Below are positions 5,016 through 59,837 of a stretch of 64,000 nt of DNA, one piece after another. The translations under genes were made by a program, and so were the position numbers. Position 1 is the first letter of the stretch; every line of letters begins with the position of its first letter. Source of the stretch: Alphaproteobacteria bacterium (GTDB lineage: Bacteria; Pseudomonadota; Alphaproteobacteria; MPNO01). Location of the stretch: positions 560,622 to 624,621 of the forward strand of contig OY730228.1 of the NCBI GenBank assembly GCA_963422565.1, read 5' to 3'. The notes under the pieces were generated by a model that was given only the letters and a program-made list of their open reading frames with translations, had not been told where the DNA came from and searched no databases.

Positions 5016-6734
5016 CTATCTCTCTGCGCCGAACGCGCCGACAACGCCCCTGTATTTCTTTTCATTATTGGCATACGCGCTATGGGTGGCGGCCATAAAC
5101 TTCCCAGCAACTCCCGTCGGCTGTTCCTTCAGATCGTCTACGCCGTAGAACTGCGACGCCCATTCGCCGTCCGCAAACTTCACGCCATCCGCCGCGCCTC
5201 CAATCTCACCTTCACTAGTGCCATCCTTATTAAGATCGCTTTCTTCCAGTCGGACGATCCAATCGCTATCGCCGCCGTCGAAAGGATCGTTGGGATTGTC
5301 GGAACTGTCGCGACCGATGTACCGGCCGTGGCTATCCTTGAAGTTGTCGATACGCCCTGTCAACTTGCCCATACCGCCATTAAAATTTGCCGTCAGCTTC
5401 GCGCGAGCGACGAACATTCCGTTACTAACATCCCGGTCCACATAGAGCCCCGTCGCAGAGCCTTCGTAGGTGGCCTTGCCGCCCAAACTATTCTCGACGC
5501 CCACCTCGTTCTGGCCATAGAAAAACACGTCGCCAAAATGTTCGCCATGTTCCTGGTCGTTGGGCACGGTGGCCCAGACGCCGAAAGCCAACCAATCCTG
5601 GTCCGGCAACATGATCGTCGCGCCCTTATCGGGCTTGAACGTCCATACGAGGCCTGTCTTGGAATTAATCTGAAACCGGGCTCCGGTCCTGACGCCGCCA
5701 ACATCTACAATTCTGCAATCATCGTCAGCCGTGCCGTCTGCGCAATTCAGCGTACCCTTCACACCGAGATATTCTGCCGGGATCCCGTTCTTCCGCTCGT
5801 CGGCGTCAAAAGTAAACGCACGCCGAGCTCCAGTTGGCACAACAGCCTTTACAAACTGGGCATCAGATACTGCCATTTGGATCATGCCGTCGGTCACTTG
5901 AAAATACTTTTTCAGTTTATCATCGGCAATATGGTTCACCAGTTCTTTGTCGAATTTATACTCTTTGGGGTTCTCGACATTCGAGTATATCAGGGCACCC
6001 GTCTCAAAGCCTGCGTCCTCATCTCCTTCGGTGTCTCCCCAATCCCTGAACATGACCCGTTGGTCCCATTTCGGAAGGTCAAGTTCGCTAGCTTTGCCGC
6101 CATCTTTACCCTTGCCACCGATCTTCTTTTTAGCCCCGCTCGCGGAAGTGAATCTATCTTCCAAAGTTACACCAGACAAGTCCTCAGGGCCAATCCCCTC
6201 CAGAACGGTGCTATCAAGTTTGGCGTCCTTCCAACCAATGATCTTATCCTTGCTATCGAACGTACTACTGAAGGCAGAGACAATTATCGAGGGGTTTGCG
6301 GGATTTAGCCGGTTGACGATTTCTTCGGGGTCGGGCCCGGGGGGAAGCTTCGCCACAACCAGCATGTTATCACCGGATTTATCCTCCGCATCGGTCCGGG
6401 TCTTCCAATTCGCCTCGACCTTGCCGAGATTCCGCGTCAGCTCGATGGTGCAGGGATACTTGCTCTTGCATTCGAAGACCACGCCCTCGCGAGTATCGCT
6501 CTGGCCGGCCCCGATCTCAAGCGTAGCAGAGTTATCCTGACTCTCTAGCCCATCCAACAGTTCATTAGTGACTGGCACATCAAAGTCCATCGAAACCGTT
6601 CTGGCCGTCGGCCCACTCGATGTCGACGGCTGTTGGGTATTGGTGTCATTATCGCTGGAGCAGGCGGCCACGCCTAGCGCCAGAGCCACGGCGGCGGCCG
6701 CAGCAGTCATCGGTTTGAAGTATCTCGGATCCAT
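5016..6734 (-). CDS. TbpB-like (transferrin-binding-protein-like) surface lipoprotein, predicted Slam cargo
   Basis: RBS GAGAGGGGG before ATG 6734; lipobox LGVAA-C; S/T/D-rich linker; C-terminal TbpB-type barrel (ATYEGSATG...LTANF...LTGRIDNF...WASQFYG...VAGKF...VVGAFGAER). Confidence 0.88.
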   Translation of the reverse strand: MDPRYFKPMTAAAAAVALALGVAACSSDNDTNTQQPSTSSGPTARTVSMDFDVPVTNELLDGLESQDNSATLEIGAGQSDTREGVVFECKSKYPCTIELTRNLGKVEANWKTRTDAEDKSGDNMLVVAKLPPGPDPEEIVNRLNPANPSIIVSAFSSTFDSKDKIIGWKDAKLDSTVLEGIGPEDLSGVTLEDRFTSASGAKKKIGGKGKDGGKASELDLPKWDQRVMFRDWGDTEGDEDAGFETGALIYSNVENPKEYKFDKELVNHIADDKLKKYFQVTDGMIQMAVSDAQFVKAVVPTGARRAFTFDADERKNGIPAEYLGVKGTLNCADGTADDDCRIVDVGGVRTGARFQINSKTGLVWTFKPDKGATIMLPDQDWLAFGVWATVPNDQEHGEHFGDVFFYGQNEVGVENSLGGKATYEGSATGLYVDRDVSNGMFVARAKLTANFNGGMGKLTGRIDNFKDSHGRYIGRDSSDNPNDPFDGGDSDWIVRLEESDLNKDGTSEGEIGGAADGVKFADGEWASQFYGVDDLKEQPTGVAGKFMAATHSAYANNEKKYRGVVGAFGAER

Positions 6735-6756
6735 CGCGGAACCCCCTCTCGATTTT

Positions 6757-7138
6757 ATGTAGAGGCCCCATGTAGAGGCCCCATGTAGAGGCCCCATGTA
6801 GAGGCCCCATGTAGAGGCCCCATGTAGAGGCCCCATGTAGAGGCCCCATGTAGAGGCCCCATGTAGAGGCCCCATGTAGAGGCCCCATGTAGAGGCCCCA
6901 TGTAGAGGCCCCATGTAGAGGCCCCATGTAGAGGCCCCATGTAGAGGCCCCATGTAGAGGCCCCATGTAGAGGCCCCATGTAGAGGCCCCATGTAGAGGC
7001 CCCATGTAGAGGCCCCATGTAGAGGCCCCATGTAGAGGCCCCATGTAGAGGCCCCATGTAGAGGCCCCATGTAGAGGCCCCATGTAGAGGCCCCATGTAG
7101 AGGCCCCATGTAGAGGCCCCATGTAGAGGCCCCATGTA
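6757..7138. repeat. Perfect tandem array: 29 x 13-bp ATGTAGAGGCCCC plus a 5-bp partial unit
   Basis: Read directly: the first unit starts at 6757 and the 29th at 7121 (364 = 28 x 13), followed by ATGTA. No spacers and no mismatches seen. Confidence 0.98.
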
Positions 7139-8273: not shown

Positions 8274-9389
8274 TCAGATCAGATGGCCGCTCTTCCGCGC
8301 CTTGGTCGACAGGTAGAACGCATTGTGATCGTTGGCCGGGAAGGCGTGCGGGACCCGTTCGACGACGTCGATCCCGAAACCGGTCAGGGCCTCGACCTTG
8401 TCCGGGTTGTTGGTCATCAACCGCACCCTGGCGAAGCCGAGCTGGCGGAGCATTTCGGCCGCCGGAAGAAACAGGCGCTCATCGGCTTCGAAGCCCAGCC
8501 TCTCGTTGGCCTCGACCGTATCGAATCCCTGGTCCTGCAAGGCGTAGGCGCGAAGCTTGTTGATCAGGCCGATCCCCCGCCCCTCCTGCGCGAGATAGAG
8601 CAGCACGCCGCCACCCGCCTGCGAAATCCGCGCGATCGCGCCCTGCAGCTGCTGGCCGCAATCGCATTTGAGCGAGCCGAGGAGATCGCCGGTAAAGCAT
8701 TCCGAATGCAGCCGCGCCAGAACCGGCCCCGGCGGGGCGGGATCGCCGATGACGATCGCCAGATGCTCGATGCCGCCGTCGGCCGGGCGAAAGGCGGCGA
8801 TTCGCGCCGACTCCGCGCCCGCCAGCGGCACCCGCGCCTCGGCGACCCGGCGCAGCGCGCGGGCGGCGGCGACATCGTAGGCCAGGATATCGCCCGCCAC
8901 GACGCTCAGCATGCCGGCGTCGCCGAGGGACGCCGCGCCCGCGCCGCCGCCCAGCTCGACGGCGAGCATGGCGGGCAGCAGCCGGGCGATCTTGGCGAGG
9001 CGAACGCCCGCGACCACGCTGGCGGGAACCGGATCACGCCGCGCATCGAACGGACCGCGCAACGGCCGGAGAAGATCGGCCGTCGGATCGGCGATGGCGG
9101 CGAGCGCCTCGACCGACAGCCATCCGGGTATCGGGAGACGCACGACATCGGGCGTATAGAGCCGGATCTTGAGAGTCGCCGCCCGGTTGTGGGTGATCGC
9201 CAGATCGGGCTCCGCCCCCGACCAGCGGCGCAGCGCCGCGATCCGGGGCTCGGACGCGAACTCGGCGGCGAACATCGCCGCGGCGGTGCCGGCCGGGTCG
9301 TCGTCGGTCACGATCACCGGCAAAGCGCGGCGGAGGTCGCCGGCGGCCCGGTCGACCCCGGCCAGGCGGGAGATGCGATAGCCGGTCAT
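8274..9389 (-). CDS. ribA: GTP cyclohydrolase II with the N-terminal extension typical of alphaproteobacteria
   Basis: RLHSECFTGDLLGSLKCDCG, QEGRGIGLINKLRAYALQDQGFDTVEAN, TNNPDKV. Start taken as MTGYRIS. Confidence 0.95.
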   Translation of the reverse strand: MTGYRISRLAGVDRAAGDLRRALPVIVTDDDPAGTAAAMFAAEFASEPRIAALRRWSGAEPDLAITHNRAATLKIRLYTPDVVRLPIPGWLSVEALAAIADPTADLLRPLRGPFDARRDPVPASVVAGVRLAKIARLLPAMLAVELGGGAGAASLGDAGMLSVVAGDILAYDVAAARALRRVAEARVPLAGAESARIAAFRPADGGIEHLAIVIGDPAPPGPVLARLHSECFTGDLLGSLKCDCGQQLQGAIARISQAGGGVLLYLAQEGRGIGLINKLRAYALQDQGFDTVEANERLGFEADERLFLPAAEMLRQLGFARVRLMTNNPDKVEALTGFGIDVVERVPHAFPANDHNAFYLSTKARKSGHLI

Positions 9390-9539
9390 GCCCCCTTGAT
9401 AGCCGCGCCCGAACCGCCGGGCAAACGCGGATAGCGATGCCGGTTTCGGCGTCCCGGCGGCGGTGCCTTGCCGGCGCCCCCGGGCTATGACAGTCTGGCG
9501 CCCTCTTCGACGGGTTCCGGGAAGGACGATCCGCCGGCG

Positions 9540-10556
9540 ATGGATGCGGAACGGGTCAAGGACATGGCCAGGGGCTTGGGCGCGGACCTCGTCGGCATCG
9601 CCGATGCGGCGGTCCTGAACGCCTTCCCGCCCGATCCGCTCCATCCCCAGACGCCGGACAGGATTTCGCCGCGCGTCAAGTCGGCGATCGCGATCGTCCA
9701 GCGCATCCCCGCCGGCGCGTTTCGCTGCAAGAGCAACGTCCCGGTCCAGTACATGGACATGCTGGTGCTGCGCCGCATGGACCGAATCGCCTGGCGTCTG
9801 GTCGAGGCGATGGAGCGCGCCGGCCATCCGAGCTTCGTCACCGCCGCGCAGGAGACCGACTGGTCCTACAAGCGCGCCTCCTACGGGCGGCTCAGCACCC
9901 GCCATCTCGGGATCGAGGCGGGGCTCGGCACGTTCGGCCTCGAGGTCAACATCCTCACCCCGGAATTCGGGCCGCGGGTCTATCTGACGGGGGTGCTCAC
10001 CGAATGCGCGCTCGAGGCGGACCGGCCGATGACCGAGCAGGTCTGCATCGGGGAGAGCTGCAGCCGCTGCCTCCATTCCTGCCCCACCGATGCCGTCCGC
10101 CATTTCGGGATCGACAAGCGCGCCTGCGCCACCGAGGCGCAGGAGTTCGGCTTCTCGACGATCCTCAAATTCTGGGAGCATTTCATCCGGTCGGACGGAA
10201 CGGTCAGGCGACGGCTGATCGTCGACCGCGAGATGTTCGGCTTCTGGCAGGGCCTGCTGCGGGTCGTGGGCTCGTTCGGGGACTGCCCCCGCTGTCTCGC
10301 GGTCTGCCCGGTGGGCAACGACTATCACGCCCATCTCGCGGACATCCAGAAGATCGTCCCGGAGAAGACGCCCGAGAAGGTCGCCAAGGCGCGCGGCTTC
10401 AAGGAGGCGCGCAAGTCCGGCGCGCGGATCGACGGGCTCGACGACTGGAACATCCGCTGGGTCGGGCCGGACGGCTACAAGGGGATCGTCGCGCGGCAGC
10501 TCCGGGCGTTCAAGGCCGCGCAGCGCGCGCGCCGGGAACGGGAGACGGCGGGCTGA
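9540..10556 (+). CDS. QueG/reductive-dehalogenase-like 2x[4Fe-4S] protein, paralog A (putatively cobalamin-binding)
   Basis: LGADLVGIAD, AGLGTFGLEVNILTPEFGPRVYLTGVLT, CIGESCSRCLHSCP...C...CPRCLAVCP. No Tat signal. Confidence 0.8.
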   Translation: MDAERVKDMARGLGADLVGIADAAVLNAFPPDPLHPQTPDRISPRVKSAIAIVQRIPAGAFRCKSNVPVQYMDMLVLRRMDRIAWRLVEAMERAGHPSFVTAAQETDWSYKRASYGRLSTRHLGIEAGLGTFGLEVNILTPEFGPRVYLTGVLTECALEADRPMTEQVCIGESCSRCLHSCPTDAVRHFGIDKRACATEAQEFGFSTILKFWEHFIRSDGTVRRRLIVDREMFGFWQGLLRVVGSFGDCPRCLAVCPVGNDYHAHLADIQKIVPEKTPEKVAKARGFKEARKSGARIDGLDDWNIRWVGPDGYKGIVARQLRAFKAAQRARRERETAG

Positions 10557-10559
10557 CGC

Positions 10560-11570
10560 ATGACGTCCGCGTTCAAGACCCCGATCGCCGCCGAGACGAT
10601 CAAGGAAAAGGCGCTGGAGCTCGGCGCCGACCTCGCGGGCATTGCCGACGGCGCGGTGATGGACGCGTTTCCGCCCGACCCGCGCGATCCGCGCCGCCCG
10701 GCCGACATAACCGACCATGACGGCGACCGGGTGATCGTGCTCGCCAAGCGCTATTCGGCGGGAACGACCCGCATCGCCCGCTGGGACGAACGCCACAAAT
10801 ACTATAATGACGAGCTCACCCTGACGCGGCTCGAGGAGACCGCGCTCGATCTGGTCTTCTGGCTCGAGGAGCAGGGCCATCCGGCGCTCACCATCCCACC
10901 GACCCATGTCGATCCGTGGCGCTATGTCGGGGAGCCCGGCCGGCATATGACGACGATGCTGTCCCTCGCCCATGCGGCCGTCGAGGCCGGGCTCGGGACG
11001 CTCGGGCTCAACCTCCAGCTGATCACGCCGGCCTTCGGCCCGCGGGTCATCCTGGCCGCGGTCCTCTGCTCGGTCGACTGCGCGCCCGACCGCCGGATGA
11101 CCGAGGCGCTGTGCCTGGGGCCGGAATGCGGGCGCTGTCTCGCCGCCTGCCCGGGCGATGTCGTCGCGCATTGGGACCGCGACTGGGTGGCCTGCGACCG
11201 CTATCGGTCGCCGCACGGTTTCGCCCAGCTGGGCGCGCATCTGACCGAGATCATGGACGCCCCCGACGAAGCCGCGAAGCTCGCTCTGATCCGTTCGGAG
11301 ACCAGCTTCAATCTGTGGCAGAGCATTCTGCGCGGCGCGGGAGTCGTCACCGGCTGCCGGCGCTGTCAGGATGTCTGCCCGGTCGGCGAGGATTACGGCG
11401 CCATGATCGAGGACGCGCTGCGGGATATCCCCGAAGACACCCCCGACAAGGCGGCGCGTCTGGCCCGCATGGTGGCGGACGAGGCGGCGGGCCGGCTGCC
11501 GGAGAGCCACGAGGCCCAGTCGCGCTGGATCGGCGCGCGCGGCCGTCCCGACCCTCCCGATTCGTCATGA
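10560..11570 (+). CDS. QueG/reductive-dehalogenase-like 2x[4Fe-4S] protein, paralog B
   Basis: LGADLAGIAD, HAAVEAGLGTLGLNLQLITPAFGPRV, CLGPECGRCLAACP...C...CRRCQDVCP. Starts 3 nt after the stop of paralog A. Confidence 0.8.
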   Translation: MTSAFKTPIAAETIKEKALELGADLAGIADGAVMDAFPPDPRDPRRPADITDHDGDRVIVLAKRYSAGTTRIARWDERHKYYNDELTLTRLEETALDLVFWLEEQGHPALTIPPTHVDPWRYVGEPGRHMTTMLSLAHAAVEAGLGTLGLNLQLITPAFGPRVILAAVLCSVDCAPDRRMTEALCLGPECGRCLAACPGDVVAHWDRDWVACDRYRSPHGFAQLGAHLTEIMDAPDEAAKLALIRSETSFNLWQSILRGAGVVTGCRRCQDVCPVGEDYGAMIEDALRDIPEDTPDKAARLARMVADEAAGRLPESHEAQSRWIGARGRPDPPDSS

Positions 11571-12922
11571 CCGCGCTGGAGCGCCTCGCCGACACCCATC
11601 GCAACGCACATTACGCGGACCTGCCGATCTGCCTGCCCGAGAGCGCCGAGGAGATCGCGGAGATCCAGCGCAGACGCAAGAAGGAAGCCGTCGCGCGCGC
11701 CCGCCGATCGCATTTCTGGCGCCGCCGACTCGGCCATATCGACCTCGACAGGCTCGACGAGCCCGAGGAGTGGGCGCGCATCCCGATCCTGACCAAGGAC
11801 GCGCTGCGGGCGATGACGCCGGATGTCTTCTATGCCGATTTCTGCACCGCATCGGGCGGCCGGGTCTGCGAGTTCTGGCGCTCGGGCGGCAGCACCGGGC
11901 GCCCCCTCTTCTATCCGAAGACCCGGGAGGACATGCTCTACAACATGATCGGGTTCACCCGGACCTTCGCCTGCGCGCGGATCGGCGCCGCGCCGGGATC
12001 GGAGGAGCGCGTTCATCTGTCGATGCCGCTCGGCATCCATCCGGCGGGCCATGCCTGGGCGCGGGCGGCCGAGATCGTGGGGCTCGGGGTGGTCTGGGCC
12101 GGTTCCGGCGCGGCGCTGCCGTCGGTTCAGCAGCTCGACCTGATCGACATGCTGTCGCCCACCGTCTGGCTCGGCATGTCGAGCTATGGGCTGCATCTCG
12201 CCAATGTCGCCAGCGGCGCGGGGCGCGACCTCGCGGCGAGCTCGGTCCGGACCGTGATGTGCACCGCCGAGCCCTGCTCCGCCGCCAAGCGGGAGAAGCT
12301 GGAGCGCGACTGGGGCGCCAGGGTCTATGACTGCTTCGGCATGACCGAGGCCACCATGCTAGGCGCCGAGGGCCCGTCGCGGACGGGGTTCCGCGTCTGG
12401 TCCGATCTCGCATATTTCGAAGTGCTCGATCCCGAGACGCGGGCGCCGGTGGCGCCCGGCCGGCCGGGCCGCCTCGTGGTCACGCCGCTGTTCGGGAACG
12501 AGGGCGCCCCGTTCCTGCGCTGGGATTCGGGCGACATCGTGGCGATGAACGCCGATGCCGGCGACGACGGCGCGTTCTCGGTCTTCCCGACGCTCCGCCA
12601 TGCGCATCGCACGGCCGGCTTCTTCAAGATTCGCGGGGTGAACGTCAACCATCAGGAATTCGAGGACATGATGTTCGCCCGCGCCGACGTCAACGACTTC
12701 AAGGCGGAGGCGGTCAGCGGACCGACGGGGCTCGACTCGTTGCGGGTCTCGGTCGAATTCCGCCGGGGAGTGCCTGCCGAAACCGCGCGCCGGGAGATCC
12801 TGCGCCGGACGAAATCGGTCTTCGAGATCACGCCCGAGCTGGCGGTTCTCGAACCGGGCACGCTCGGCCGCGAGTTCGAGAACAGCGTGAAGGCGCCCCG
12901 TTTCGTCGACCGTCGGGACTGA
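11567..12922 (+). CDS. Phenylacetate-CoA ligase (PaaK)-like adenylate-forming enzyme
   Basis: ATGA overlap with paralog B; IPILTKDALR, RSGGSTGRP, YDCFGMTE, PFLRWDSGD, KIRGVNV. Confidence 0.88.
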   Translation: MTALERLADTHRNAHYADLPICLPESAEEIAEIQRRRKKEAVARARRSHFWRRRLGHIDLDRLDEPEEWARIPILTKDALRAMTPDVFYADFCTASGGRVCEFWRSGGSTGRPLFYPKTREDMLYNMIGFTRTFACARIGAAPGSEERVHLSMPLGIHPAGHAWARAAEIVGLGVVWAGSGAALPSVQQLDLIDMLSPTVWLGMSSYGLHLANVASGAGRDLAASSVRTVMCTAEPCSAAKREKLERDWGARVYDCFGMTEATMLGAEGPSRTGFRVWSDLAYFEVLDPETRAPVAPGRPGRLVVTPLFGNEGAPFLRWDSGDIVAMNADAGDDGAFSVFPTLRHAHRTAGFFKIRGVNVNHQEFEDMMFARADVNDFKAEAVSGPTGLDSLRVSVEFRRGVPAETARREILRRTKSVFEITPELAVLEPGTLGREFENSVKAPRFVDRRD

Positions 12923-13013: not shown

Positions 13014-13442
13014 TCAGGTCTCGGCGCCGAGCCCCGCCGCCTCGATCCCGGCGAGGGCAGCCGTCTCGTCGTTCTCCGAACTGTCGCCGCTGACCCCGAC
13101 CGCGCCGACGATCTCGTCTCCGTCCTTGATGAGCACGCCGCCCGGCACCGGGATCAGCCGCCCCGCAGACGCGCCGATCAGGGCGTCGATGAAATGCGGC
13201 CGCTCGGCGGCCATCGCGTTCAGCACGCGGGACGACCGGCCCATGCCCACCGCCCCGAAGGCCTTGCCGGTCGCGATCTGCGGTCTGAGCGCGGCGCCGG
13301 GACCGTCCTCCCGCTTGAAGGCCTTGAGGTTGCCGCCGTCGTCGACGACGGAGACGGTCAGCGGCTTGAGACCCATCCTGCGACCGGTCTCGAGGGTCGT
13401 ATCGACGATCGTCGAAGCCTGTGCCAGCGTCAGTTTCGCCAC
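13014..13442 (-). CDS. GlcG/HbpS heme-binding family protein
   Basis: GTG start with AGGGGAAG RBS; VSVVDDGGNLKAFKREDG, IATGKAFGA, VPGGVLI...VGAVGVSGDSSENDE. Confidence 0.9.
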   Translation of the reverse strand: MAKLTLAQASTIVDTTLETGRRMGLKPLTVSVVDDGGNLKAFKREDGPGAALRPQIATGKAFGAVGMGRSSRVLNAMAAERPHFIDALIGASAGRLIPVPGGVLIKDGDEIVGAVGVSGDSSENDETAALAGIEAAGLGAET

Positions 13443-13536
13443 GGTCGCTTCCCCTGTATATGGTCGGTGCGTCGACAACGGTAATCGGGCGCGGCCCGCC
13501 GGAAAAGCCCGGCCCGCCCGAAGGGGCAAGTGCCGC

Positions 13537-14418
13537 ATGGTCATGTCGAAGCGTCGCTGCGGGCTGATCGAGATCCAGGCCGTCGAGGAATGGACCGGGC
13601 TCTATCGCGATCCGCTCGAGATGTATCCGGACGCCACCCCCGAGATCGTCGCCCGCCATCGCGACTGGCTGGTACCGGAGACGATGGACGCCGAGACCGG
13701 GCGGATGATCTTCGCGTTCCAGAGCTATCTCCTGCGGACTCCCCGCTGCACCATCCTGGTCGACGGCTGCGTGGGCAACGACAAGGACCGCCCGGACAGG
13801 CCCGACTGGCACCGCAGGAGCTGGCCCTGGCTGGAGAATCTGCGCGCGGCCGGCGTCGCCCCGGAAGAGATCGATTTCGTGATGTGCACCCATCTGCATG
13901 TCGATCACGTGGGCTGGAACACCCGGCTGGAGAACGGGCGCTGGGTGCCGACCTTCCCGAACGCCTCCTATCTGTTCGGCGAGACCGAATACCGCTTCTG
14001 GGAGCGCGAGCACGTGAAAGTCCCGTTCATCCGCAACAGCTTCGAAGACAGCGTCCTGCCGGTCGTGGAGGCCGGGAAAGCGGTGCTGGTCGGCGACGGG
14101 CACGAGGTGGACGACGGCGTGACGATCGCGCCTTCGCCCGGGCACACGCCGGGACATATGTGCCTGAACGTCGCCTCGCAGCGAGAGAGGGCGGTCTTTT
14201 CGGGAGACCTGATGCATCACCCGATCCAGGTGCCGGAGCCGCAGCTCTCCTCGATCTTCTGCGCCGACGCCGAAGCGTCGCGGCGAACCCGAACCGCCTT
14301 CGTCGAACGCCATTGCGACGCCGACACGGTCATCCTGCCGGCGCATTTTCCGGGCCGTTCGGCGGGCCGGATCAGGGACCATGGTGGGACCGCCCGGTTC
14401 GAGTTCTGCGATGCGTAG
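13537..14418 (+). CDS. MBL-fold metallo-hydrolase
   Basis: CTHLHVDHVGWNT (HxHxDH), SPGHTPGH, FSGDLMHH, LPAHF. Confidence 0.92.
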   Translation: MVMSKRRCGLIEIQAVEEWTGLYRDPLEMYPDATPEIVARHRDWLVPETMDAETGRMIFAFQSYLLRTPRCTILVDGCVGNDKDRPDRPDWHRRSWPWLENLRAAGVAPEEIDFVMCTHLHVDHVGWNTRLENGRWVPTFPNASYLFGETEYRFWEREHVKVPFIRNSFEDSVLPVVEAGKAVLVGDGHEVDDGVTIAPSPGHTPGHMCLNVASQRERAVFSGDLMHHPIQVPEPQLSSIFCADAEASRRTRTAFVERHCDADTVILPAHFPGRSAGRIRDHGGTARFEFCDA

Positions 14419-26339: not shown

Positions 26340-27296
26340 TCAGACGACCCGGAGCAGATGGATGCTGAACAGCGCCCGCCGGTCGGTCCAGGCCGCGAGC
26401 GCTTCGTAGCCCGCCTCGGCCGCCATGCCGCGAAACTCGGCCACGGTGAACTTGTAGGAATTCTCCGTGTGGATCGTCTCGCCCTCCTCGAAGTCGAAGG
26501 CGCGGCCGTCGAGGCGAACCGTCTGGGCGCGCGCGCTGACCAGATGCATCTCGACCCGCCCAAGATCGCGGTTGTAGACGGCATCATGGTTGAAGGAAGA
26601 GAGATCGAAATCGCCGTCGAGCTCGCGGTTGATGCGCGCGAGCAGGTTCATGTTGAAGGCCGCGGTAACCCCATCGCCGTCATTATAGGCGGGAAGGAGG
26701 ACGCTCTCGTCCTTCTTCAGGTCGACTCCGACGAGCATCATCGCCCCGGCACCGAGGGTACGGGCCGCGACCCGCAGGAAGCCGCGCGCTTCGGAGGGCG
26801 TGAGGTTCCCGATCGTCGAACCCGGAAAGAACCCTAGCCGCACGCCCTTTCCGCAACGGTCGCCGGTCTCCACGAGAGGCTCGCGGGTGTAGTCGGCACA
26901 GATCGCATCGACGGCGACATGCGGAAACGCCGCCGCCACCTCGCCCGCCGCTTCGAGCAGATGCTGACGCGATATGTCGATCGCCGTATAGGCGAGCGGG
27001 CGGCGGAGCGACGAGAGGAGAATCCGAATCTTGGTGCTGGCGCCGGTTCCAAACTCGATGACGTGACAATTCTCTCCGGCGGCAGCGGCGATTTCGGGGC
27101 CGTGCCGCTCAAGAAGACCGACCTCCGTTCGGGTGGGATAATATTCGTCCAACTCGCAGATCCGGTCGAACAGCTCGGACCCGGCTCTGTCATAGAAGAA
27201 CTTGCAGGGAAGGGTCTTGGGCGCCCGTTGGAGCCCGGCGACAACGGCTGTCCTGAAATCCTCGACTTCCGGCCCGTCGTCGCGGAAACTGAGCAT
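26340..27296 (-). CDS. egtD: L-histidine N-alpha-methyltransferase (ergothioneine biosynthesis)
   Basis: PKTLPCKFFYD..GSELFDRICELDEYYPTRTE, FFPGSTIGN, GVDLKKD, AYND..GVTAAFN, IHTENSYKF. Confidence 0.95.
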   Translation of the reverse strand: MLSFRDDGPEVEDFRTAVVAGLQRAPKTLPCKFFYDRAGSELFDRICELDEYYPTRTEVGLLERHGPEIAAAAGENCHVIEFGTGASTKIRILLSSLRRPLAYTAIDISRQHLLEAAGEVAAAFPHVAVDAICADYTREPLVETGDRCGKGVRLGFFPGSTIGNLTPSEARGFLRVAARTLGAGAMMLVGVDLKKDESVLLPAYNDGDGVTAAFNMNLLARINRELDGDFDLSSFNHDAVYNRDLGRVEMHLVSARAQTVRLDGRAFDFEEGETIHTENSYKFTVAEFRGMAAEAGYEALAAWTDRRALFSIHLLRVV

Positions 27297-27635
27297 CGGC
27301 TCCGATCGGCCTTGCAAGGAAACGCTCCGAACGCCGCGCGAACGCCCCTCGGGGCGGGGCGGGTTGGACGCGCAAGCTAACCGGCACCGCTCCATCGCGC
27401 AACCGGCCGTCCCGGGACGCAACAATTCTCATTTCGGCGTCCCGCCGGTCGTGGCCCCCAAGAGCCGCCCATGTCGAGAACCCGGCGAGAGCTCGACATG
27501 CGCGTCGAGGCGTTCGGCCATGAGCCCGTCGAAACGGTTGTCGCCGGTGGACGCCAGCATCCCGATCGCTAAGGTGGTCCCGGAAAAGTTGTCCGGCGAG
27601 GCAGGGCTGCCTCAGAGAGACGAGGAACGCGGCGG

Positions 27636-28472: not shown

Positions 28473-28549
28473 TGGCGCGCCCGGCAGGATTCGAACCTGC
28501 GACCCGCGGATTAGAAGTCCGCCGCTCTATCCAGCTGAGCTACGGGCGC
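28473..28549 (-). tRNA. tRNA-Arg(TCT)
   Basis: GCGCCCGTAGCTCAGCTGGATAGAGCGGCGGACTTCTAATCCGC...GGTTCGAATCC...GCGCCA; cloverleaf with encoded CCA. Confidence 0.95.
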
Positions 28550-28667
28550 TACGCCGCGTCCATGCGAACGACTTCTACACCAACCCATCCGACGCCGCAT
28601 CGGCCGGGCTCGTCCGGAACGGCCGACGAACGCGCCACCGGGGGGGTCCGGACACCGGGCGACCGCC

Positions 28668-28976
28668 TCAATGGGTCCAGCTCATGGTCCGAGTGTAGCT
28701 GAAATTGTCGGCATAGGCCTTCGGGAGGATTTTCCTTTCGCGCCCGGAATGGATCTCGAACGACAATCCGTGGTGCTCGGCGAAGGCGACCGCGTCCTCG
28801 CCGGTCGGGAATTCGAGCCTGATCTGACCCCTAGTGTCGCCGCGCCCGGCCCATCCCATCAGAGAGTCCCGCCGCTGCGCGAGGGTAGCAGAAAATTCCA
28901 GGACCCAGAGGTTGCACCGCGCCCGACCCGACTGCATCGCGGTCTTGGCCGGCCGATAGATGCTGACATCGCTCAC
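28668..28976 (-). CDS. ETC complex I subunit conserved-region protein (NDUFS4-like)
   Basis: IYRPAKTAMQSG, LMGWAGRGDT..Q..LEF, KAYADNF. Confidence 0.92.
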   Translation of the reverse strand: MSDVSIYRPAKTAMQSGRARCNLWVLEFSATLAQRRDSLMGWAGRGDTRGQIRLEFPTGEDAVAFAEHHGLSFEIHSGRERKILPKAYADNFSYTRTMSWTH

Positions 28977-29069
28977 TGGCGTCTCTCCGGTCGTCGGGCC
29001 GCGCCACCAAGCATCGACGACCGACGGCGTCCCCGGCCGGAAACCGGCACGGGCTGCCGGAGGCAAAGG

Positions 29070-29147
29070 TGGCGGGAGTGACGGGACTCGAACCCGCGGC
29101 CTCTGGCGTGACAGGCCAGCGCTCTAAACCGACTGAGCTACACCCCC
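29070..29147 (-). tRNA. tRNA-Asp(GTC)
   Basis: GGGGGTGTAGCTCAGTCGGTTTAGAGCGCTGGCCTGTCACGCCAG...GGTTCGAGTCC...CGCCA. Confidence 0.95.
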
Positions 29148-29165
29148 TCGCGACGGAAGCCCATC

Positions 29166-29195
29166 ATGTAGAACGGTCCGGCTCGGGGAGTCAAC
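29166..29195 (-). promoter_or_regulatory. Possible sigma70 promoter for tRNA-Asp
   Basis: GTTGAC-N18-CTACAT, close to the alphaproteobacterial CTTGAC-N17-CTATAT consensus. Confidence 0.4.
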
Positions 29196-29217
29196 GCTCC
29201 GCGCTGCCGCCGAGCCG

Positions 29218-29293
29218 TGGTGGGCGGTGACGGGATCGAACCGCCGGCCTCCACGGTGTAAACGTGGCGCTCTACCTGCTGAGCTAACCGCCC
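29218..29293 (-). tRNA. tRNA-Val(TAC)
   Basis: GGGCGGTTAGCTCAGCAGGTAGAGCGCCACGTTTACACCGTGG...GGTTCGATCC...CACCA. Confidence 0.95.
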
Positions 29294-35658: not shown

Positions 35659-35743
35659 TGGTGCGGGCGGAGGGATTCGAACCCCCACGGCTTGCGCCAC
35701 CAGATCCTAAGTCTGGCGTGTCTACCATTTCCACCACGCCCGC
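35659..35743 (-). tRNA. tRNA-Leu(TAG)
   Basis: GCGGGCGTGGTGGAAATGGTAGACACGCCAGACTTAGGATCTGG, long variable arm, GGTTCGAATCC...CACCA. Confidence 0.96.
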
Positions 35744-50547: not shown

Positions 50548-51978
50548 TCAGCTCGTTCCCGACGACATCTCCGGCTCGTCGAGGAAGTCGGCCAGATCGA
50601 CGCTCCCGTGGTTGTGCGGCAGGGCCGGGGCGAACCGTGCGCGGCCGGCCGCATCGGCCGCCGCCGGCATCGTCGCATCGATCATCGTCTTGGTGCCGAT
50701 CCGGTACATCGCGCTCATCCCCGGCACGATGTCGGAGACGTTGTCGAGCGACCAGATCCGCGTGTTGGGGATGCGGACGACATCGCGGGACGCTTCGACT
50801 CTGGTGGTCAGCGACCAGAAGATCTGGCGGAGATCGCCCGCATCGATATCCTCGTCGACGGCGATCGCGAGCTTGGGGTGCAGATAGGGGCTGGACAGGG
50901 CGGCCATCAGCGCCGTCCTGGCTTGGCCCTCGACGCGCGGGCGGAGCTTGAGGACGATCGCCATCAGCCCCGAGATGCCGAGCAGACGCACGTCGCGCAG
51001 GTCGAGCCCGCCCTCGACGTTGCGCAGATGCTCGGTGACGACGGTTTCGATGCAGGCGCCGGTGATCGACTGGGTGTCGGTCATCGGGATGCCGCACTGC
51101 ATCGAATAGAAGATCGGTTCGGATCGCATGGTGATCGCCTTGACCCGGAAGACCTGGGTCGCGCCTTCCATCGCGTAGGTCCCGGTGGCCTCACCGAACG
51201 GCCCCTCCGGCGTCATCGCGTCCGGCAGGACCTCGCCCTCGATCACGATCTCGGCTTCGGCGGGCACTTCGAGATCGACCGTCTCGCATTGGACCAGCCG
51301 GATCGGATCGTCGAGCAGGGCGCCCGCGATACCGAGCTCGTCAAGCCCGTAGCTGGAGGTGAAAGCCGCCGCGTAGTAGAGCGCCGGATGGGCGCCGATG
51401 ACCATCGCCACCGGCATCGGCTCTCCGCGCGCCTGGTACATCTGGAATATGCGGAGCGCGTGGCGGGGGCAGATCAGGAAACCCGTCCGGTCCGGTCCCA
51501 GAATCTGCTGGCGATGGATCGACATGTTGCGGATGCCGGTCTCGGGATCCTTGATGATCGCCATCCCCGAAGCGATGTAGGGGGCGGGGTCGTTCTCGGA
51601 ATGCCAGACCGCCGGGATGCGGGTGAGATCCGCCGCCTCGCCGGTGAGCACGACCCGCTTCACCGGCGCCGCGCCACGCCCGACCATGACCGGCGGCACC
51701 GGCTTCCGGATGCGCGCGCCGAGGGTCCCGATCAACGTGTCCGGGTCGGAGTCGAGCGCGATCGCCCATTTCCGGCGGTCGGCGACGATCTGGCTGCAGA
51801 TCCGCCAGCCGGGAAAGCCGGTGGGGTCGGAATAGAGCGTGGCCTTCCCGAGCGAGTCGTATGTCTTCCAGGAGAGCGCCGAGACGTTCTCGTGCGGGTC
51901 GACGGGCCTGGCGACGCGGACCAGCTCGCCCTGCTGTTCGAGATTGCCGAGATGGCCCCGGATGGACTGGTCGCGCAT
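50548..51978 (-). CDS. UbiD-family prFMN-dependent (de)carboxylase
   Basis: NMSIHRQQ, EAEIVIEG, EGPFGEATG, KLAIAVDEDID. Confidence 0.92.
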   Translation of the reverse strand: MRDQSIRGHLGNLEQQGELVRVARPVDPHENVSALSWKTYDSLGKATLYSDPTGFPGWRICSQIVADRRKWAIALDSDPDTLIGTLGARIRKPVPPVMVGRGAAPVKRVVLTGEAADLTRIPAVWHSENDPAPYIASGMAIIKDPETGIRNMSIHRQQILGPDRTGFLICPRHALRIFQMYQARGEPMPVAMVIGAHPALYYAAAFTSSYGLDELGIAGALLDDPIRLVQCETVDLEVPAEAEIVIEGEVLPDAMTPEGPFGEATGTYAMEGATQVFRVKAITMRSEPIFYSMQCGIPMTDTQSITGACIETVVTEHLRNVEGGLDLRDVRLLGISGLMAIVLKLRPRVEGQARTALMAALSSPYLHPKLAIAVDEDIDAGDLRQIFWSLTTRVEASRDVVRIPNTRIWSLDNVSDIVPGMSAMYRIGTKTMIDATMPAAADAAGRARFAPALPHNHGSVDLADFLDEPEMSSGTS

Positions 51979-52085
51979 TCCGCTCTCCCCGCCATGATGC
52001 GCTGCCGAGTATCGAGCACCGGGCGCAGCCCGCAAGGCCGGCGTTCGCTGCTATAGTCCGGGGCGCATCGGGGAGGAGGACGGCG

Positions 52086-53933: not shown

Positions 53934-53949
53934 GGCGGACGAAACCCTG

Positions 53950-53971
53950 CCGTCCGTCCGTCCGTCCGTCC
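53950..53971. repeat. (CCGT)5.5 tetranucleotide microsatellite
   Basis: c-cgtc-cgtc-cgtc-cgtc-cgtc-c, read directly. Confidence 0.85.
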
Positions 53972-54080
53972 CGATCCCGGACGCCGGGTTGCGGTGCAAG
54001 ACGGCTTCTTCCATGCTGTCGGGCTCGAACCCCGGCTTCGACGGCTCCGGCCGAAGAAGCACTCAAGGAGGAGCATACCC

Positions 54081-55085
54081 ATGTTGAGATTGTCGGTCGC
54101 GATGCTTGTGGCGAGTATCGCCTCGCTAGCCGCAGGCCCGGCGAGCGCACAACAGATCCTCAAAGCGGAAACGGGCAATCCCGGTTCCACCGGTCACGCG
54201 CTCATCGTCGTGGCCTCGAAGATCTACAAGCGGGAACTCGGAATCGATATCCAGATCAACGACAGCCAGACTCTGACGAAGTCAGCGTTGAAGCTCGGTC
54301 GGAACCAGATCGACATCATGGCGATGCCCACGTCCGTCTACAAGTTTCTGGCCGCGGGTTCGCGCATGTACAAAAAGAGGCTGCACGAACAGGCCATCGA
54401 GGCGGGCAAGAACATTCGCGCGCTGCTCGGATTCCAAGCGGTCGTGTTCCACCCCGTGACATTCGATGTCGACGGCATCAAGACTTGGAAGGACATCAAG
54501 GGCAAACGCGTGTTCGTCGGCCCGCCCGCGGGCGCGGCGTCGGTGACCGTGCAGACCATGATCAGGACGCTGACCGGCTACGAGCCGAACAAGGACTACA
54601 AGGCCGTCAAGCTGAACTGGGGTTCGGGCCTGCAAGCCATGATGGACGGCAAGCTCGACGTATTCGTTCGTCCGGTCAATCCGGGCGGGGCGATCATCGA
54701 GCAGCTCGGCCTGTCGAAGAAGTTCAGAATTCTCGACTCGGACACATCGACCGAGGCCTGGAAGAAATGGCTGAAGGGTCCCGGACGCTTCACCGGCGTT
54801 ATTCCGGCCAACACCTATAGCGGTCAGGTCGACAACGACAAGGCGATCAACGCCGGTGCGGCGACGTTCCATCTCGCCGTCCGCGGGGACATGTCGGACG
54901 ATATGGCCTACAAGATGGTCGACGCCCTATGGAGCAACCTGGACGAGGTGCACAAGACCTCCGTGATCCTCAAGCCGATCACGATGGAGACGCCGTTCGT
55001 CGGCGTGAATGCAAAGCTGCACCCGGGCGCCGTCAGATATTACGAGGAGAAGGGCGTCTCCGTTCCGGCCGCCCTGATGCCGTAG
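54081..55085 (+). CDS. TAXI-family TRAP solute-binding protein (with signal peptide)
   Basis: AGGAGG RBS; signal peptide ending ASA-Q; KRVFVGPPAG; LHPGAVRYYEE. Confidence 0.9.
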   Translation: MLRLSVAMLVASIASLAAGPASAQQILKAETGNPGSTGHALIVVASKIYKRELGIDIQINDSQTLTKSALKLGRNQIDIMAMPTSVYKFLAAGSRMYKKRLHEQAIEAGKNIRALLGFQAVVFHPVTFDVDGIKTWKDIKGKRVFVGPPAGAASVTVQTMIRTLTGYEPNKDYKAVKLNWGSGLQAMMDGKLDVFVRPVNPGGAIIEQLGLSKKFRILDSDTSTEAWKKWLKGPGRFTGVIPANTYSGQVDNDKAINAGAATFHLAVRGDMSDDMAYKMVDALWSNLDEVHKTSVILKPITMETPFVGVNAKLHPGAVRYYEEKGVSVPAALMP

Positions 55086-55166
55086 CGCCGCCGTTCCCGT
55101 GCTTCGATCGGGGTCGGCCGGTTTCCGCGATGACGGGGTCGGCCCCGATCGAAGAGCCGTCCTGAC

Positions 55167-57134
55167 ATGAGCGGTCCGGCAGATCGGTCCGAAGCCCCCC
55201 GCTCGCCGATGGCGAAGGCGGCGAAGGCGGCGGCGTTCCCGGTGGCCCTGTTCATGGCTCTGCTGGGCATCGCCAACTCTTCGCCGAAGTTCTGGATCGT
55301 GCCGACGGTGGGGCCGTTCGATTCGGAATGGATGCGCCCGGTCGTCCTCGCCTGTTCGGTCTTCATCGTCCTGTCGACCAGAGGCTTCGCGCAAGATTTC
55401 GCGGCGCGGAATTCTCCGCATGTCCGGCTGGGTGCCCTGATCGACCTGGTTCTCGCCGCTGCCGCTTTCTGGTGCTTCTGGCGTTACTATGTCGACGTCT
55501 CCGAGATCGAGGAGGGGCTGTTCGATTTCGAGCTGATCCACCCGATCATCGCCCTGGTCGGATCGGGTGTGTTCATCGTCATCTGCTGGAAGCTATGGGG
55601 CGCGCCGCTGGCGATCTGCGGCGTCGCCGCGCTGGTCTATTTCTTTTCGGGAGAGTATTGGCCCTGGATCTTCAAAACCGCGCCGATCATCTTCGTGGAT
55701 ACCGCCGAGGACCTCTGGTTCAATCTGAACGACGGGATTCTCGGCACCCTGATGGGAATATTGATATTCACGGTGTTTCCGTTCGTTCTCCTCGGCACCA
55801 TGCTCGAGCAGATGGGCGGAGGACGCTCGCTGATCAAGTTGGCGTTCCACGTCACGCGAAATTTCCGCGGCGGGCCGGCCCATGCCGCGATCCTCGCCTC
55901 CGGTCTCTTCGGGACGATGTCGGGCGGCGCGGTCACCAACGTGGTGGCGACCGGCGTGATCACCATCCCGATGATCAAGAGACGAGGATTCAGCCCAGCA
56001 TTCGCGGGCGGAGTCGAAGCGACGGCCTCGAGCGCCGGGCAGATCATGCCGCCGATCATGGGCGCGGCAGCGCTGGTCATGGCCGATTTTACGGGTCTCT
56101 CCTACCTGACGATCATCGCCGCCGCCCTGGTCCCGGCGCTCGCCTACTACACGAGCCTCTTCGCAAGCGTCGTCTTCGAGGCACGCCGCCTGGGCGTCGA
56201 GGCGGTTCCCGACATGGACAGCGATTTCACCGTTACCACCCAGGATTTCATCAACCTGGCCATGATCCTGATCCCGGTGGCCGTCGTCATCTTCACCCTT
56301 CTCCGCGGCTTCTCGCCGGCCGGGGCGGGCATGCTGGCGATGTACAGCGTGATCGTTCTCAGCTTTCTCAATCCGGAAATCCGCCGCAACCCGCTCAAGA
56401 TCGTGACCGCACTGGCGCGGGGGGCCGAGACGCAGGCCTCCCTGCTGATGGCGATCGGCGTCGTCGGAATCGTGGTCGCGGTGCTCGGCGCGACCGGCCT
56501 GCCGAACGACTTCGCGCAGGTGGTCGGGCAGGCGACCGGCACCCAGCTGTTCCTGACTCTCGCGGTCGCGGCCTTCGCGGCGCTGATGCTGGGCATGGGC
56601 ATGCCGACGCTTCCGGCCTATCTGACGATCATCCTGATCCTCGGACCCTCGATGCAGACCCTGGGCATCTCGGTCCTGACGGCGCATCTCTTCGTGTTCT
56701 ATTTCGGCGTCGCGTCGTCGATCACGCCGCCGGTCGCGGTCGCCGCCTACGCAGCAGCGTCGATTTCGGGCGGCTCGCCGCTGATCACCTCGGTCTACGC
56801 GATGCGCATCGGCCTTGTAAAATTCGTGGTACCGTTCATTTTCGCCTTCTATCCGGTCATGCTGATCGTGCCCGAAAGCGGCGTCGCGTTCGACGCTCCG
56901 TCCTTCGCGTCGATCGTCTTTCGGATGCTGGTCGTGATCTACCTGGTATCGGGCTCCGTCATCGCGTTCGATCGAAGACGCCTTCCGCTTTGGGAGATCG
57001 CGCTACGTCTGGTTCTGGCGCTCGCCGTCCTGGCGATGGATCCGATGGTCCATTGGCCGGCGACGGGATCGGCGTTCCTCTATCTGGGCTGGCATTATCT
57101 GAAATTTTCCACGCCCCCGAGCGCCGCTCGCTGA
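55167..57134 (+). CDS. TRAP transporter fused (4TM/12TM) permease, TAXI type
   Basis: GGPAHAA, VVATG..TIPM, EATASSAGQIMPPIMGA, GMGMPT, ITPPVAVAAYAAA. Confidence 0.95.
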   Translation: MSGPADRSEAPRSPMAKAAKAAAFPVALFMALLGIANSSPKFWIVPTVGPFDSEWMRPVVLACSVFIVLSTRGFAQDFAARNSPHVRLGALIDLVLAAAAFWCFWRYYVDVSEIEEGLFDFELIHPIIALVGSGVFIVICWKLWGAPLAICGVAALVYFFSGEYWPWIFKTAPIIFVDTAEDLWFNLNDGILGTLMGILIFTVFPFVLLGTMLEQMGGGRSLIKLAFHVTRNFRGGPAHAAILASGLFGTMSGGAVTNVVATGVITIPMIKRRGFSPAFAGGVEATASSAGQIMPPIMGAAALVMADFTGLSYLTIIAAALVPALAYYTSLFASVVFEARRLGVEAVPDMDSDFTVTTQDFINLAMILIPVAVVIFTLLRGFSPAGAGMLAMYSVIVLSFLNPEIRRNPLKIVTALARGAETQASLLMAIGVVGIVVAVLGATGLPNDFAQVVGQATGTQLFLTLAVAAFAALMLGMGMPTLPAYLTIILILGPSMQTLGISVLTAHLFVFYFGVASSITPPVAVAAYAAASISGGSPLITSVYAMRIGLVKFVVPFIFAFYPVMLIVPESGVAFDAPSFASIVFRMLVVIYLVSGSVIAFDRRRLPLWEIALRLVLALAVLAMDPMVHWPATGSAFLYLGWHYLKFSTPPSAAR

Positions 57135-59776: not shown

Positions 59777-59837
59777 GATATCCGGGAACGCTCGGAGACT
59801 CGGTTGCAGGATCCCGTTCGACGCAACCTCCGGCCTC

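Follow-up and report, generated by a model that had tools for sequence, protein, structure and literature searches.

A candidate heterodimeric, ligase-coupled branch of the class-III cobalamin enzymes in an alphaproteobacterial genome

What reaction is served by two tandem genes that resemble epoxyqueuosine reductase (QueG) and the reductive dehalogenase RdhA, and that are followed by a gene for an acid-coenzyme A (CoA) ligase? The question is raised by a 64,000-nucleotide chromosomal stretch of the alphaproteobacterial contig OY730228.1 (hereafter the window), which has about 70% G+C. The gene for subunit A (9540-10556, + strand; 338 residues) begins with an ATG 13 nt after GGAAGGA and ends with a TGA stop at 10554-10556. 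The gene for subunit B (10560-11570, + strand; 336 residues) lies in the same frame as A, one codon past its TGA. The third gene (11567-12922, + strand) encodes a PaaK-like adenylate-forming acid-CoA ligase of 451 residues, and its start overlaps the stop of B as ATGA; the ligase is translationally coupled to B. G+C at third codon positions (GC3) is about 0.9 in all three genes. Our preferred reading, to which we assign a rough probability of 0.55, is that A and B are the obligate partners of a cytoplasmic heterodimer, which would be a branch of class-III cobalamin/two-[4Fe-4S] reductases not described before and would act on aryl-CoA made by the ligase.

A preliminary description of this locus, made from the DNA letters, had reported two adjacent genes of about 337 codons set 3 nt apart, paralogous to each other, and the open reading frames (ORFs) given above agree with it. 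The proteins share 38% identity along 319 residues (E 4e-56), far above chance. Both have the same domain layout, with an N-terminal nitroreductase-like core of corrinoid type, a ferredoxin module for two [4Fe-4S] clusters, which contains a helical insert, and finally a C-terminal helix; nothing but a helical tail of about 80 residues follows the second cluster motif. The shared motifs named earlier, LGADLxGIAD, EAGLGTxGL and TPxFGPRV, were found in both A and B. The proposed eight-cysteine pattern, CX4CX2CX3CP...C...CX2CX3CP, proved invariant across our main alignment of 66 homologs, comprising 36 A-type and 30 separate B-type proteins (all 30 of the latter retain the eight residues). In A numbering these are C169, C174, C177, C181 (followed by P), C196, C249, C252 and C256 (followed by P). 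The first spacing is indeed CX4C, where QueG and PceA have CX2C, and HMMER opens a 2-residue gap there. Further invariant positions in the 66 homologs are E126-A-G-x-G130, G144-P-R146, Y71, W108 and W236. A helical insert with a conserved tryptophan had also been described; the stretch of about 52 residues between the fifth and sixth cysteines (C196 and C249) is modelled as three helices, and W236 occurs in all 66 separate A/B proteins and in 16 of 17 A halves of the fusion proteins described below. Three absences noted before hold as well: a twin-arginine motif, the twin-arginine translocation (Tat) signal, is absent from the N-termini MDAERVKDMARGLGADL and MTSAFKTPIAAETIKEKAL, the flanking genes are RibA-like and ligase and not an RdhB anchor, and neither A nor B has a fused reductase domain.

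For assignment to a family, sequence and fold were compared; none of the curated Pfam and NCBIfam models covers the A/B family. Pfam gave nothing for residues 1-165, the N-terminal domain, and its Fer4 matches were weak or borderline. The best NCBIfam match was the QueG model TIGR00276, at 53.2 bits for A and 33.8 bits for B (cut-off 200 bits), and this model was matched over positions ~129-207 of 337 only, about 80 core positions. The reductive dehalogenase (RDH) model TIGR02486 (cut-off 160 bits) scored below its cut-off with 30.2 bits for A and 20.6 bits for B. PF13486, the Pfam Dehalogenase family, had no match in A or B at E<=0.01, and the C-terminal HEAT domain with which QueG binds tRNA had none either. 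Searches of PDB sequences, run with single sequences and with profiles, gave matches confined to the GADLVGIA motif, the EAGLG...GPRV core, the first cluster motif and the second CP motif. QueG (5d08) matched this core at E about 1e-10 (4e-10 for A) and the PceA/RDH entries 4uqu and 8q4h at E 1e-9 to 1e-6 (4uqu 9e-7). With Foldseek, both models matched only RdhA, QueG and NpRdhA at E<=1e-3, the next entry being the B12 chaperone CblC. The proteins combine a nitroreductase-like core with a module for two [4Fe-4S] clusters and its eight cluster cysteines, the combination by which the class-III cobalamin superfamily is recognized. A and B are remote members of this corrinoid/[4Fe-4S] superfamily, in neither the QueG nor the RdhA family. 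No description of the A/B family was found in the literature searched on QueG-like, RdhA-like or CoA-linked families; it looks like a previously undescribed heteromeric, ligase-coupled branch of class-III B12 enzymes.

Natural gene fusions bear on whether A and B act together. A profile search over 1.8 billion cluster representatives returned 678- and 670-residue proteins with two matched stretches. The 678-residue protein, P0241, is an A-then-B fusion whose N half is 50% identical to A and whose C half is 50% identical to B, and it was found on 24 contigs from five sources (NCBI, JGI, Logan, ENA and Tara). Full-length natural A-B fusions number 17 and are only 37-53% identical to each other's representative. 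P0241 was modelled from an alignment in which each fusion, A-type and B-type sequence had been checked to sit on its correct half. AlphaFold2 gave the fused chain a mean predicted local distance difference test score (pLDDT) of 82.4 and a predicted template modelling score (pTM) of 0.86, compared with 65.5 and 0.67 for A alone; the pTM of the fusion therefore indicates a confidently fixed arrangement of both halves. The best PDB match of the P0241 model was NpRdhA, over both halves (about 670 columns, E 5e-14; template modelling (TM) scores 0.26-0.29). The additional domain of NpRdhA arose as a duplicate of the cobalamin core, is now vestigial and mimics the RdhA dimer interface (PMC10463259). 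Because 17 diverse natural fusions exist and the fused-chain model is better than that of A alone, the modelling argues for A and B as an obligate heterodimer, in line with the two-subunit enzyme first suggested for this locus.

The two subunits are unlikely to be equivalent. Arg141 of QueG lies under the corrin (PMC5175355). By sequence alignment, this position is Arg121 in 36 of 36 A-types and in all 17 fusion A halves, and it is Asn, Thr or Ala in B. Loop 104-121 of A (QETDWxYKxASYGRLSTR), the equivalent of the QueG Asp134 loop, is invariant in all 36 A-types, whereas the B loop at this position is longer and partly variable. At the position of PceA Arg305, A has an invariant Tyr148 (36/36) and B has Ile, Met or Leu. 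Moreover, the eight cluster cysteines are retained in every fusion A half (17/17), while the B half of 4 of the 17 fusions has lost C197, C212 and C266, a change consistent with loss of one cluster. A is also more conserved than B at every locus (86% versus 76% at L001). Because Arg121 and its loop are invariant in A and variable in B, and because fusion B halves lose cysteines, A is probably the catalytic corrinoid subunit and B probably an auxiliary, partly degenerating paralog with a structural or electron-transfer role, not a second equal B12 site. B would appear to be on an evolutionary path that ends in the vestigial domain of NpRdhA.

How widely the pair is kept, and with what, was examined across genomes. 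More than 2,300 clusters at 90% identity match each subunit (E<=1e-3); their automatic names are none, 'ferredoxin' or 'QueG'. Among Alpha- and Betaproteobacteria and one metagenome-assembled genome (MAG) of Rokubacteria, orthologs share 55-87% identity. A locus scan with one genome per species yielded 80 loci, all from MAGs, with carriers in Defluviicoccus, Rhodospirillales, other Alphaproteobacteria, Burkholderiales, other Betaproteobacteria and one Rokubacteria. The record title of one alphaproteobacterial carrier names a Spongia sponge, and at least one carrier, Rhizobiales bacterium GAS191 (locus L092), is cultured. A and B were adjacent in all 83 loci with room on the contig, and the pair is thus conserved, as the preliminary description requires. 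A tblastn search with A against 72,556 plasmids gave no match. The exact A protein of the window was absent from the contig index searched. Short contigs from a probable RNA run overlie the three genes and are weak evidence of expression.

The third member of the module is nearly as constant. Counting ligase genes on the same strand and within 700 nt of the pair, we found an adenylate-forming ligase next to A-B in 77 of 80 evaluable loci, so that the triad of A, B and ligase named in the preliminary description is conserved. A PaaK-like ligase lies directly downstream of A-B in 63 of the 80, by itself in 54 loci and together with an upstream ANL-type ligase (the general AMP-binding acyl-CoA synthetase type) in 9. 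An ANL ligase is found upstream only in 8 loci and downstream only in 6. The class of ligase has therefore been swapped between lineages with adjacency kept, which argues that an acyl-adenylate/CoA step is functionally tied to A/B. ORF clustering over 81 loci revealed no universally linked gene besides A, B and the ligase; the next-best linked genes, encoding Liv-type ABC components, a Rieske oxygenase, enoyl-CoA hydratase (ECH) and EamA, each occur in 18 loci or fewer.

Ligase relationships and neighboring genes point to aromatic acids as substrates. The window ligase has Pfam AMP-binding and AMP-binding_C_2 domains, and its best PDB matches are PaaK 4r1l (E 2e-27), 2y27 and the 2-hydroxyisobutyryl-CoA synthetase 6hdw. 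It was rejected as a PaaK equivalog, as its scores with the PaaK models TIGR02155 and NF041878 (103.8 and 143.8 bits) are far under the equivalog cut-offs of 646 and 700. The ANL ligases swapped in at other loci are members of the benzoate-CoA ligase family (487 bits at L070, cut-off 375; 368 bits at L087). The L087 ligase is closest in the PDB to the anthranilate-CoA ligase 4wv3 and the benzoate-CoA ligases 2v7b and 4eat, and its operon reads MarR-acyl-CoA dehydrogenase (ACAD)-old yellow enzyme (OYE)-ligase-A-B-PaaK-like-LivKHMGF, and beyond it come a GGDEF gene and two ECH genes. The Liv-type solute-binding protein encoded there is closest to 4evq, 4ey3, 4evs and 4f06, which are probably R. 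palustris binders of benzoate derivatives. Elsewhere, a 4HBT thioesterase gene lies directly upstream of A-B (L091), and L092 has a MarR-like regulator beside the module and a separate ligase/FAD-hydroxylase/4HBT/IclR cluster. Genes for Rieske, VanA-like and intradiol dioxygenases occur at L088 and beta-proteobacterial loci, with Rieske and intradiol dioxygenases near the module in L088 and L038. At L090 are an OYE/FAD reductase, a xanthine-dehydrogenase-type molybdenum enzyme and a 3-hydroxyanthranilate dioxygenase. The fusion loci have a divergent ECH gene or an ANL ligase gene, and ECH genes stand beside or near the module in the window, Defluviicoccus-like loci, P0241 fusion loci, L086 and L087. 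Since a ligase is almost always adjacent, A/B probably reduces a CoA-activated acid, likely aromatic, and not tRNA. The earlier suggestion of an enzyme for a small molecule or CoA thioester thus stands in its rejection of tRNA and in its CoA thioester, now narrowed by these contexts to aromatic acids.

The observations can be assembled into a mechanism. The co-translated ligase would make the CoA thioester of a carboxylic acid, for which a substituted benzoate or arylacetate is the likeliest candidate. Subunit A would bind a base-off corrinoid over an Arg121 'floor', and electrons would travel through the Fe-S chain, possibly entering via B, to generate cob(I)alamin, which in A would drive a two-electron reductive elimination of a substituent from the acyl-CoA. 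B would be a duplicated module freed from catalysis, supplying a dimer interface and probably a path of electron entry, in a role that parallels those of the second PceA monomer and the vestigial duplicate of NpRdhA. Removal of a ring halide would be the most likely reaction, with loss of an epoxide or hydroxyl oxygen or of an amino group as alternatives. Halide removal is our leading guess because of the NpRdhA-like architecture, the ligase/4HBT logic of 4-chlorobenzoate catabolism and the sponge-associated and marine carriers; sponges are rich in organobromines. Of the elements of this scheme, the paralogy, the superfamily-level homology and fold, the conserved pairing, the natural fusions, the ligase coupling and the asymmetric conservation of A and B are observed, and we infer the binding of corrinoid, the CoA-ester substrate, which kind of bond is reduced and where the electrons come from.

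Several observations weigh against the proposal of a corrinoid aryl-CoA reductase. Sequence-level homology to solved B12 enzymes spans just 70-100 residues or so, and corrinoid binding has no defining sequence motif. TM-scores to solved B12 enzymes are low (0.26-0.44); those of the A-alone model are weak because its AlphaFold2 prediction is mediocre. Residues of known catalytic importance are replaced, with Ser114 of A (36/36) and a Pro in B at the position of QueG Asp134, and Tyr148 of A at that of PceA Arg305. The window annotation contains no cob/btu genes, and an Rfam scan of the window found no cobalamin riboswitch, only four tRNAs (at 28476-29293 and 35662-35743). Across loci, the module has no consistent link to a gene for an electron donor or for corrinoid handling, or to a B12 riboswitch. 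Three of the 80 loci lack an adjacent ligase, and in many genomes, the window included, the three genes sit amid housekeeping genes with no surrounding pathway. Finally, the aromatic-acid contexts are heterogeneous between loci, and nearly all carriers are uncultured.

Other readings of the same pair must be considered alongside. The corrinoid heterodimer might remove oxygen as QueG does, turning an epoxy- or vicinally oxygenated acyl-CoA (such as 2,3-epoxyacyl-CoA or a ring-epoxy aryl-CoA) into an alkene or arene for processing by ECH. The ECH genes close to the module, which occur in the window and at the Defluviicoccus-like, P0241 fusion, L086 and L087 loci, would fit such a pathway, as would the slightly better E-value of A to QueG than to RdhA and the presence of Tyr148 at the PceA Arg305 position, as in QueG (GSYVYL versus GPRVYL). 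However, the acid catalyst of QueG, Asp134, is Ser114 in A, no DYH motif precedes the long helix of A by our reading of the sequence, ECH linkage is confined to a minority of loci, and no nearby epoxidase of the Paa or Box kind was seen; we consider oxygen removal unlikely. Similarly doubtful is a non-corrinoid role, in which the nitroreductase-like core would bind flavin or nothing and A/B would be an Fe-S oxidoreductase or electron-transfer module for the ligase product. Most members of the nitroreductase fold family bind flavin, and the case for cobalamin is drawn from fold alone. In the window, the gene next to A in divergent orientation encodes a RibA-like GTP cyclohydrolase II, an arrangement that recurs at many related loci, and the window is devoid of cob/btu genes and a B12 riboswitch. 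In QueG, the corrinoid sits in a nitroreductase-type module that is also found in CblC (PMC4646009). Yet all significant fold and sequence matches of A/B are to B12 enzymes and then B12 chaperones, with 2i7h, at E ~0.1, as the sole flavin-type nitroreductase-like entry. The EAGLG...GPR core, which packs against the corrin and proximal cluster in QueG/RdhA, is invariant, as is the Arg141 equivalent in A, and the RibA linkage is limited to one related genome group.

The two named families themselves are far less probable homes for the pair. That A and B are true epoxyqueuosine reductases, a duplicated QueG acting on tRNA, is the least credible reading of all, even though JGI automatic names call many homologs 'epoxyqueuosine reductase QueG' and the QueG model is their best NCBIfam match. 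With 53 and 34 bits against 200, a match limited to model positions 129-207, no C-terminal HEAT/tRNA-binding domain and Ser114 in place of Asp134, the pair fails on score, catalytic residue and domain, and QueG identity was rejected, as the preliminary description had argued. QueG is monomeric, moreover, and offers no counterpart of the obligate pairing, the fusions or the ligase coupling. Respiratory RdhA proteins of organohalide respiration are resembled in the core, which matches PceA and the RDH complex 8q4h, but this identity too is very improbable and was rejected on score (30 and 21 bits against 160 with the RDH model), on the lack of a Tat signal and rdhB, and on the lack of a PF13486 match. 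Carriers are proteobacterial MAGs with oxygenase genes near the module at several loci, and in one of them a separate, genuine RDH-family gene (203 bits) is found 7 kb from A-B. That gene, at L086:2305-3606 in a close relative of the window organism, encodes 433 residues, scores with TIGR02486, lies upstream of A-B-ligase and adjoins an Amidohydro_2 gene, not an RdhB-like gene.

More distant relatives of A/B extend the theme of duplication. At L094:8001-10954, three tandem paralogs of 338, 334 and 317 residues precede a TetR gene, and a small ferredoxin gene lies further downstream. P0311, P0315 and P0362 are single chains of about 760-840 residues with three or four QueG-like stretches. Multi-module assembly would appear to be characteristic of this wider uncharacterized group in general.

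Two neighbors of the module in the window were weighed as partners that might handle a cofactor and were rejected, each being confined to a subset of loci. The RibA-like GTP cyclohydrolase II gene (8274-9500, - strand) is divergent from A, and its DHBP-synthase-like N-terminal half is degenerate. It is also the divergent neighbor in L001-L013, L063, L081, L086 and L088, one group of related genomes, and may reflect plain synteny or a cofactor link; riboflavin is a precursor of the B12 lower ligand. The HbpS-like/DUF336 (PF03928) gene (13014-13544, - strand) is convergent with the ligase and occurs near the module in five loci (L001, L003, L063, L079 and L081), a linkage too sparse to call. The DUF336/PF03928 family includes the C-terminal domain of PduO-type corrinoid adenosyltransferases. 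Downstream of the module follow, in addition to the HbpS-like gene, genes for a metallo-beta-lactamase (MBL)-fold lactonase-like protein, aspartate dehydrogenase, ECH and a further benzoate-CoA-ligase-like synthetase, the last two located 2.4-4.8 kb from the module. Housekeeping genes of the window encode Mfd, RecG, Lon, ClpX, trigger factor, Dxs, chorismate synthase and FabI. Also present are genes for an EgtD-type histidine methyltransferase of the ergothioneine pathway (26340-27428, - strand), a UbiD-family decarboxylase (50548-52050, - strand), a TAXI-TRAP transporter (53934-57134, + strand) and a phenol-hydroxylase-type FAD monooxygenase (57854-59947, - strand), the last beside an ABC sugar-type transporter.

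A separate feature of the window is a perfect 13-bp tandem repeat, ATGTAGAGGCCCC, at 6757-7138 (29.4 copies, 100% matches). As 13 is not divisible by 3, the same 13-residue peptide, GPLHGASTWGLYM, is encoded in each of the three minus-strand frames. The repeat is at the 5' end of a lipoprotein-like ORF (5016-7109, - strand) with no Pfam match, which is directly upstream of a gene for a Surface Lipoprotein Assembly Modifier (SLAM, PF04575; 3586-4995, - strand). This ORF lies in a stretch of lower G+C (0.60-0.62 versus 0.70), and a contig from one DNA run lacks one base at 7104. The repeat looks like a slipped-strand phase-variation tract of a SLAM-dependent surface lipoprotein.

To our knowledge, class-III B12 enzymes have just two established reactions, reductive dehalogenation and epoxyqueuosine reduction. 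Characterization of A/B could add a new reaction type, or CoA esters as a new substrate class, to corrinoid enzymology. The pair could also show a stage of evolution that lies between the RdhA homodimer and NpRdhA with its fused, vestigial duplicate, and could correct a widespread misannotation that inflates QueG counts, and hence the B12 dependence of tRNA modification, in metagenomes. The dedicated ligase is a testable biochemical handle that should reveal the substrate. More tentatively, and at a probability that we place below even odds, A/B might represent a third functional branch of the QueG/RdhA group, in which a catalytic module and a duplicated helper module form an obligate heterodimer that carries out the first B12-dependent reductive (cob(I)-type) chemistry on CoA thioesters. 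Such an enzyme would be widespread among proteobacteria of sponges, the sea, soil and wastewater. It could supply the activity that is missing for a gene-orphan reaction such as aerobic halobenzoyl-CoA reductive dehalogenation or aminobenzoyl-CoA reductive deamination.

Among known systems, QueG (5d08, 5d6s) is the closest sequence match of A (E 4e-10). The corrinoid-core motif and two [4Fe-4S] clusters are common to QueG and A/B; Arg141 of QueG aligns with Arg121 of A, and both have an aromatic residue at the GxxVYL position. Unlike A/B, QueG is a monomer with a HEAT domain, a CX2CX2CX3CP motif and the catalytic residues Asp134 and His106 (domain and residue definitions from PMC5175355 and PMC4646009). 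PceA (4uqu, 8q4h; TIGR02486) has the core motif and Fe-S layout in common with A/B, and the A-B pair, or the NpRdhA duplicate, would be an imitation of its homodimer interface. It differs in being Tat-exported, RdhB-anchored and homodimeric, with active-site residues Tyr246 and Arg305, the latter replaced by Tyr in A and by Ile, Met or Leu in B.

Like A/B, the catabolic dehalogenases NpRdhA and BhbA (4ras, 6zxx) have no Tat signal or RdhB; they are cytoplasmic enzymes of aerobic proteobacteria that act on an aromatic acid, as proposed for A/B. As would be the case in A-B, the B12/two-[4Fe-4S] module of NpRdhA is packed against its own duplicate, mimicking the RdhA dimer (PMC10463259). The NpRdhA duplicate is fused, vestigial and binds no cobalamin, whereas B is usually encoded by a separate gene and has all eight cysteines. 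Most catabolic RdhAs carry a C-terminal (PDOR-type) reductase domain; A/B has none but does have a coupled CoA ligase. The substrates of NpRdhA and BhbA are free ortho-halophenolic acids, in contrast to the CoA esters proposed for A/B, and sequence likeness to NpRdhA is marginal (E ~3e-4, B only).

The nearest metabolic parallel is the 4-chlorobenzoate pathway, with its FcbA ligase, FcbB dehalogenase and FcbC 4HBT thioesterase. There, the acid is converted to a CoA ester, the thioester is dehalogenated, and the product is then hydrolysed or passed on. Similar logic is seen in A/B loci, with a ligase in 77 of 80 and a 4HBT gene adjacent in L091 and nearby in L092. FcbB, unlike A/B, is a hydrolytic enzyme of the crotonase family and not a B12/Fe-S reductase. 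Reductive dehalogenation of 2,4-dichlorobenzoyl-CoA in coryneform bacteria is NADPH-dependent and gene-orphan, and we raise, as a hypothesis only, a link between A/B and this orphan activity.

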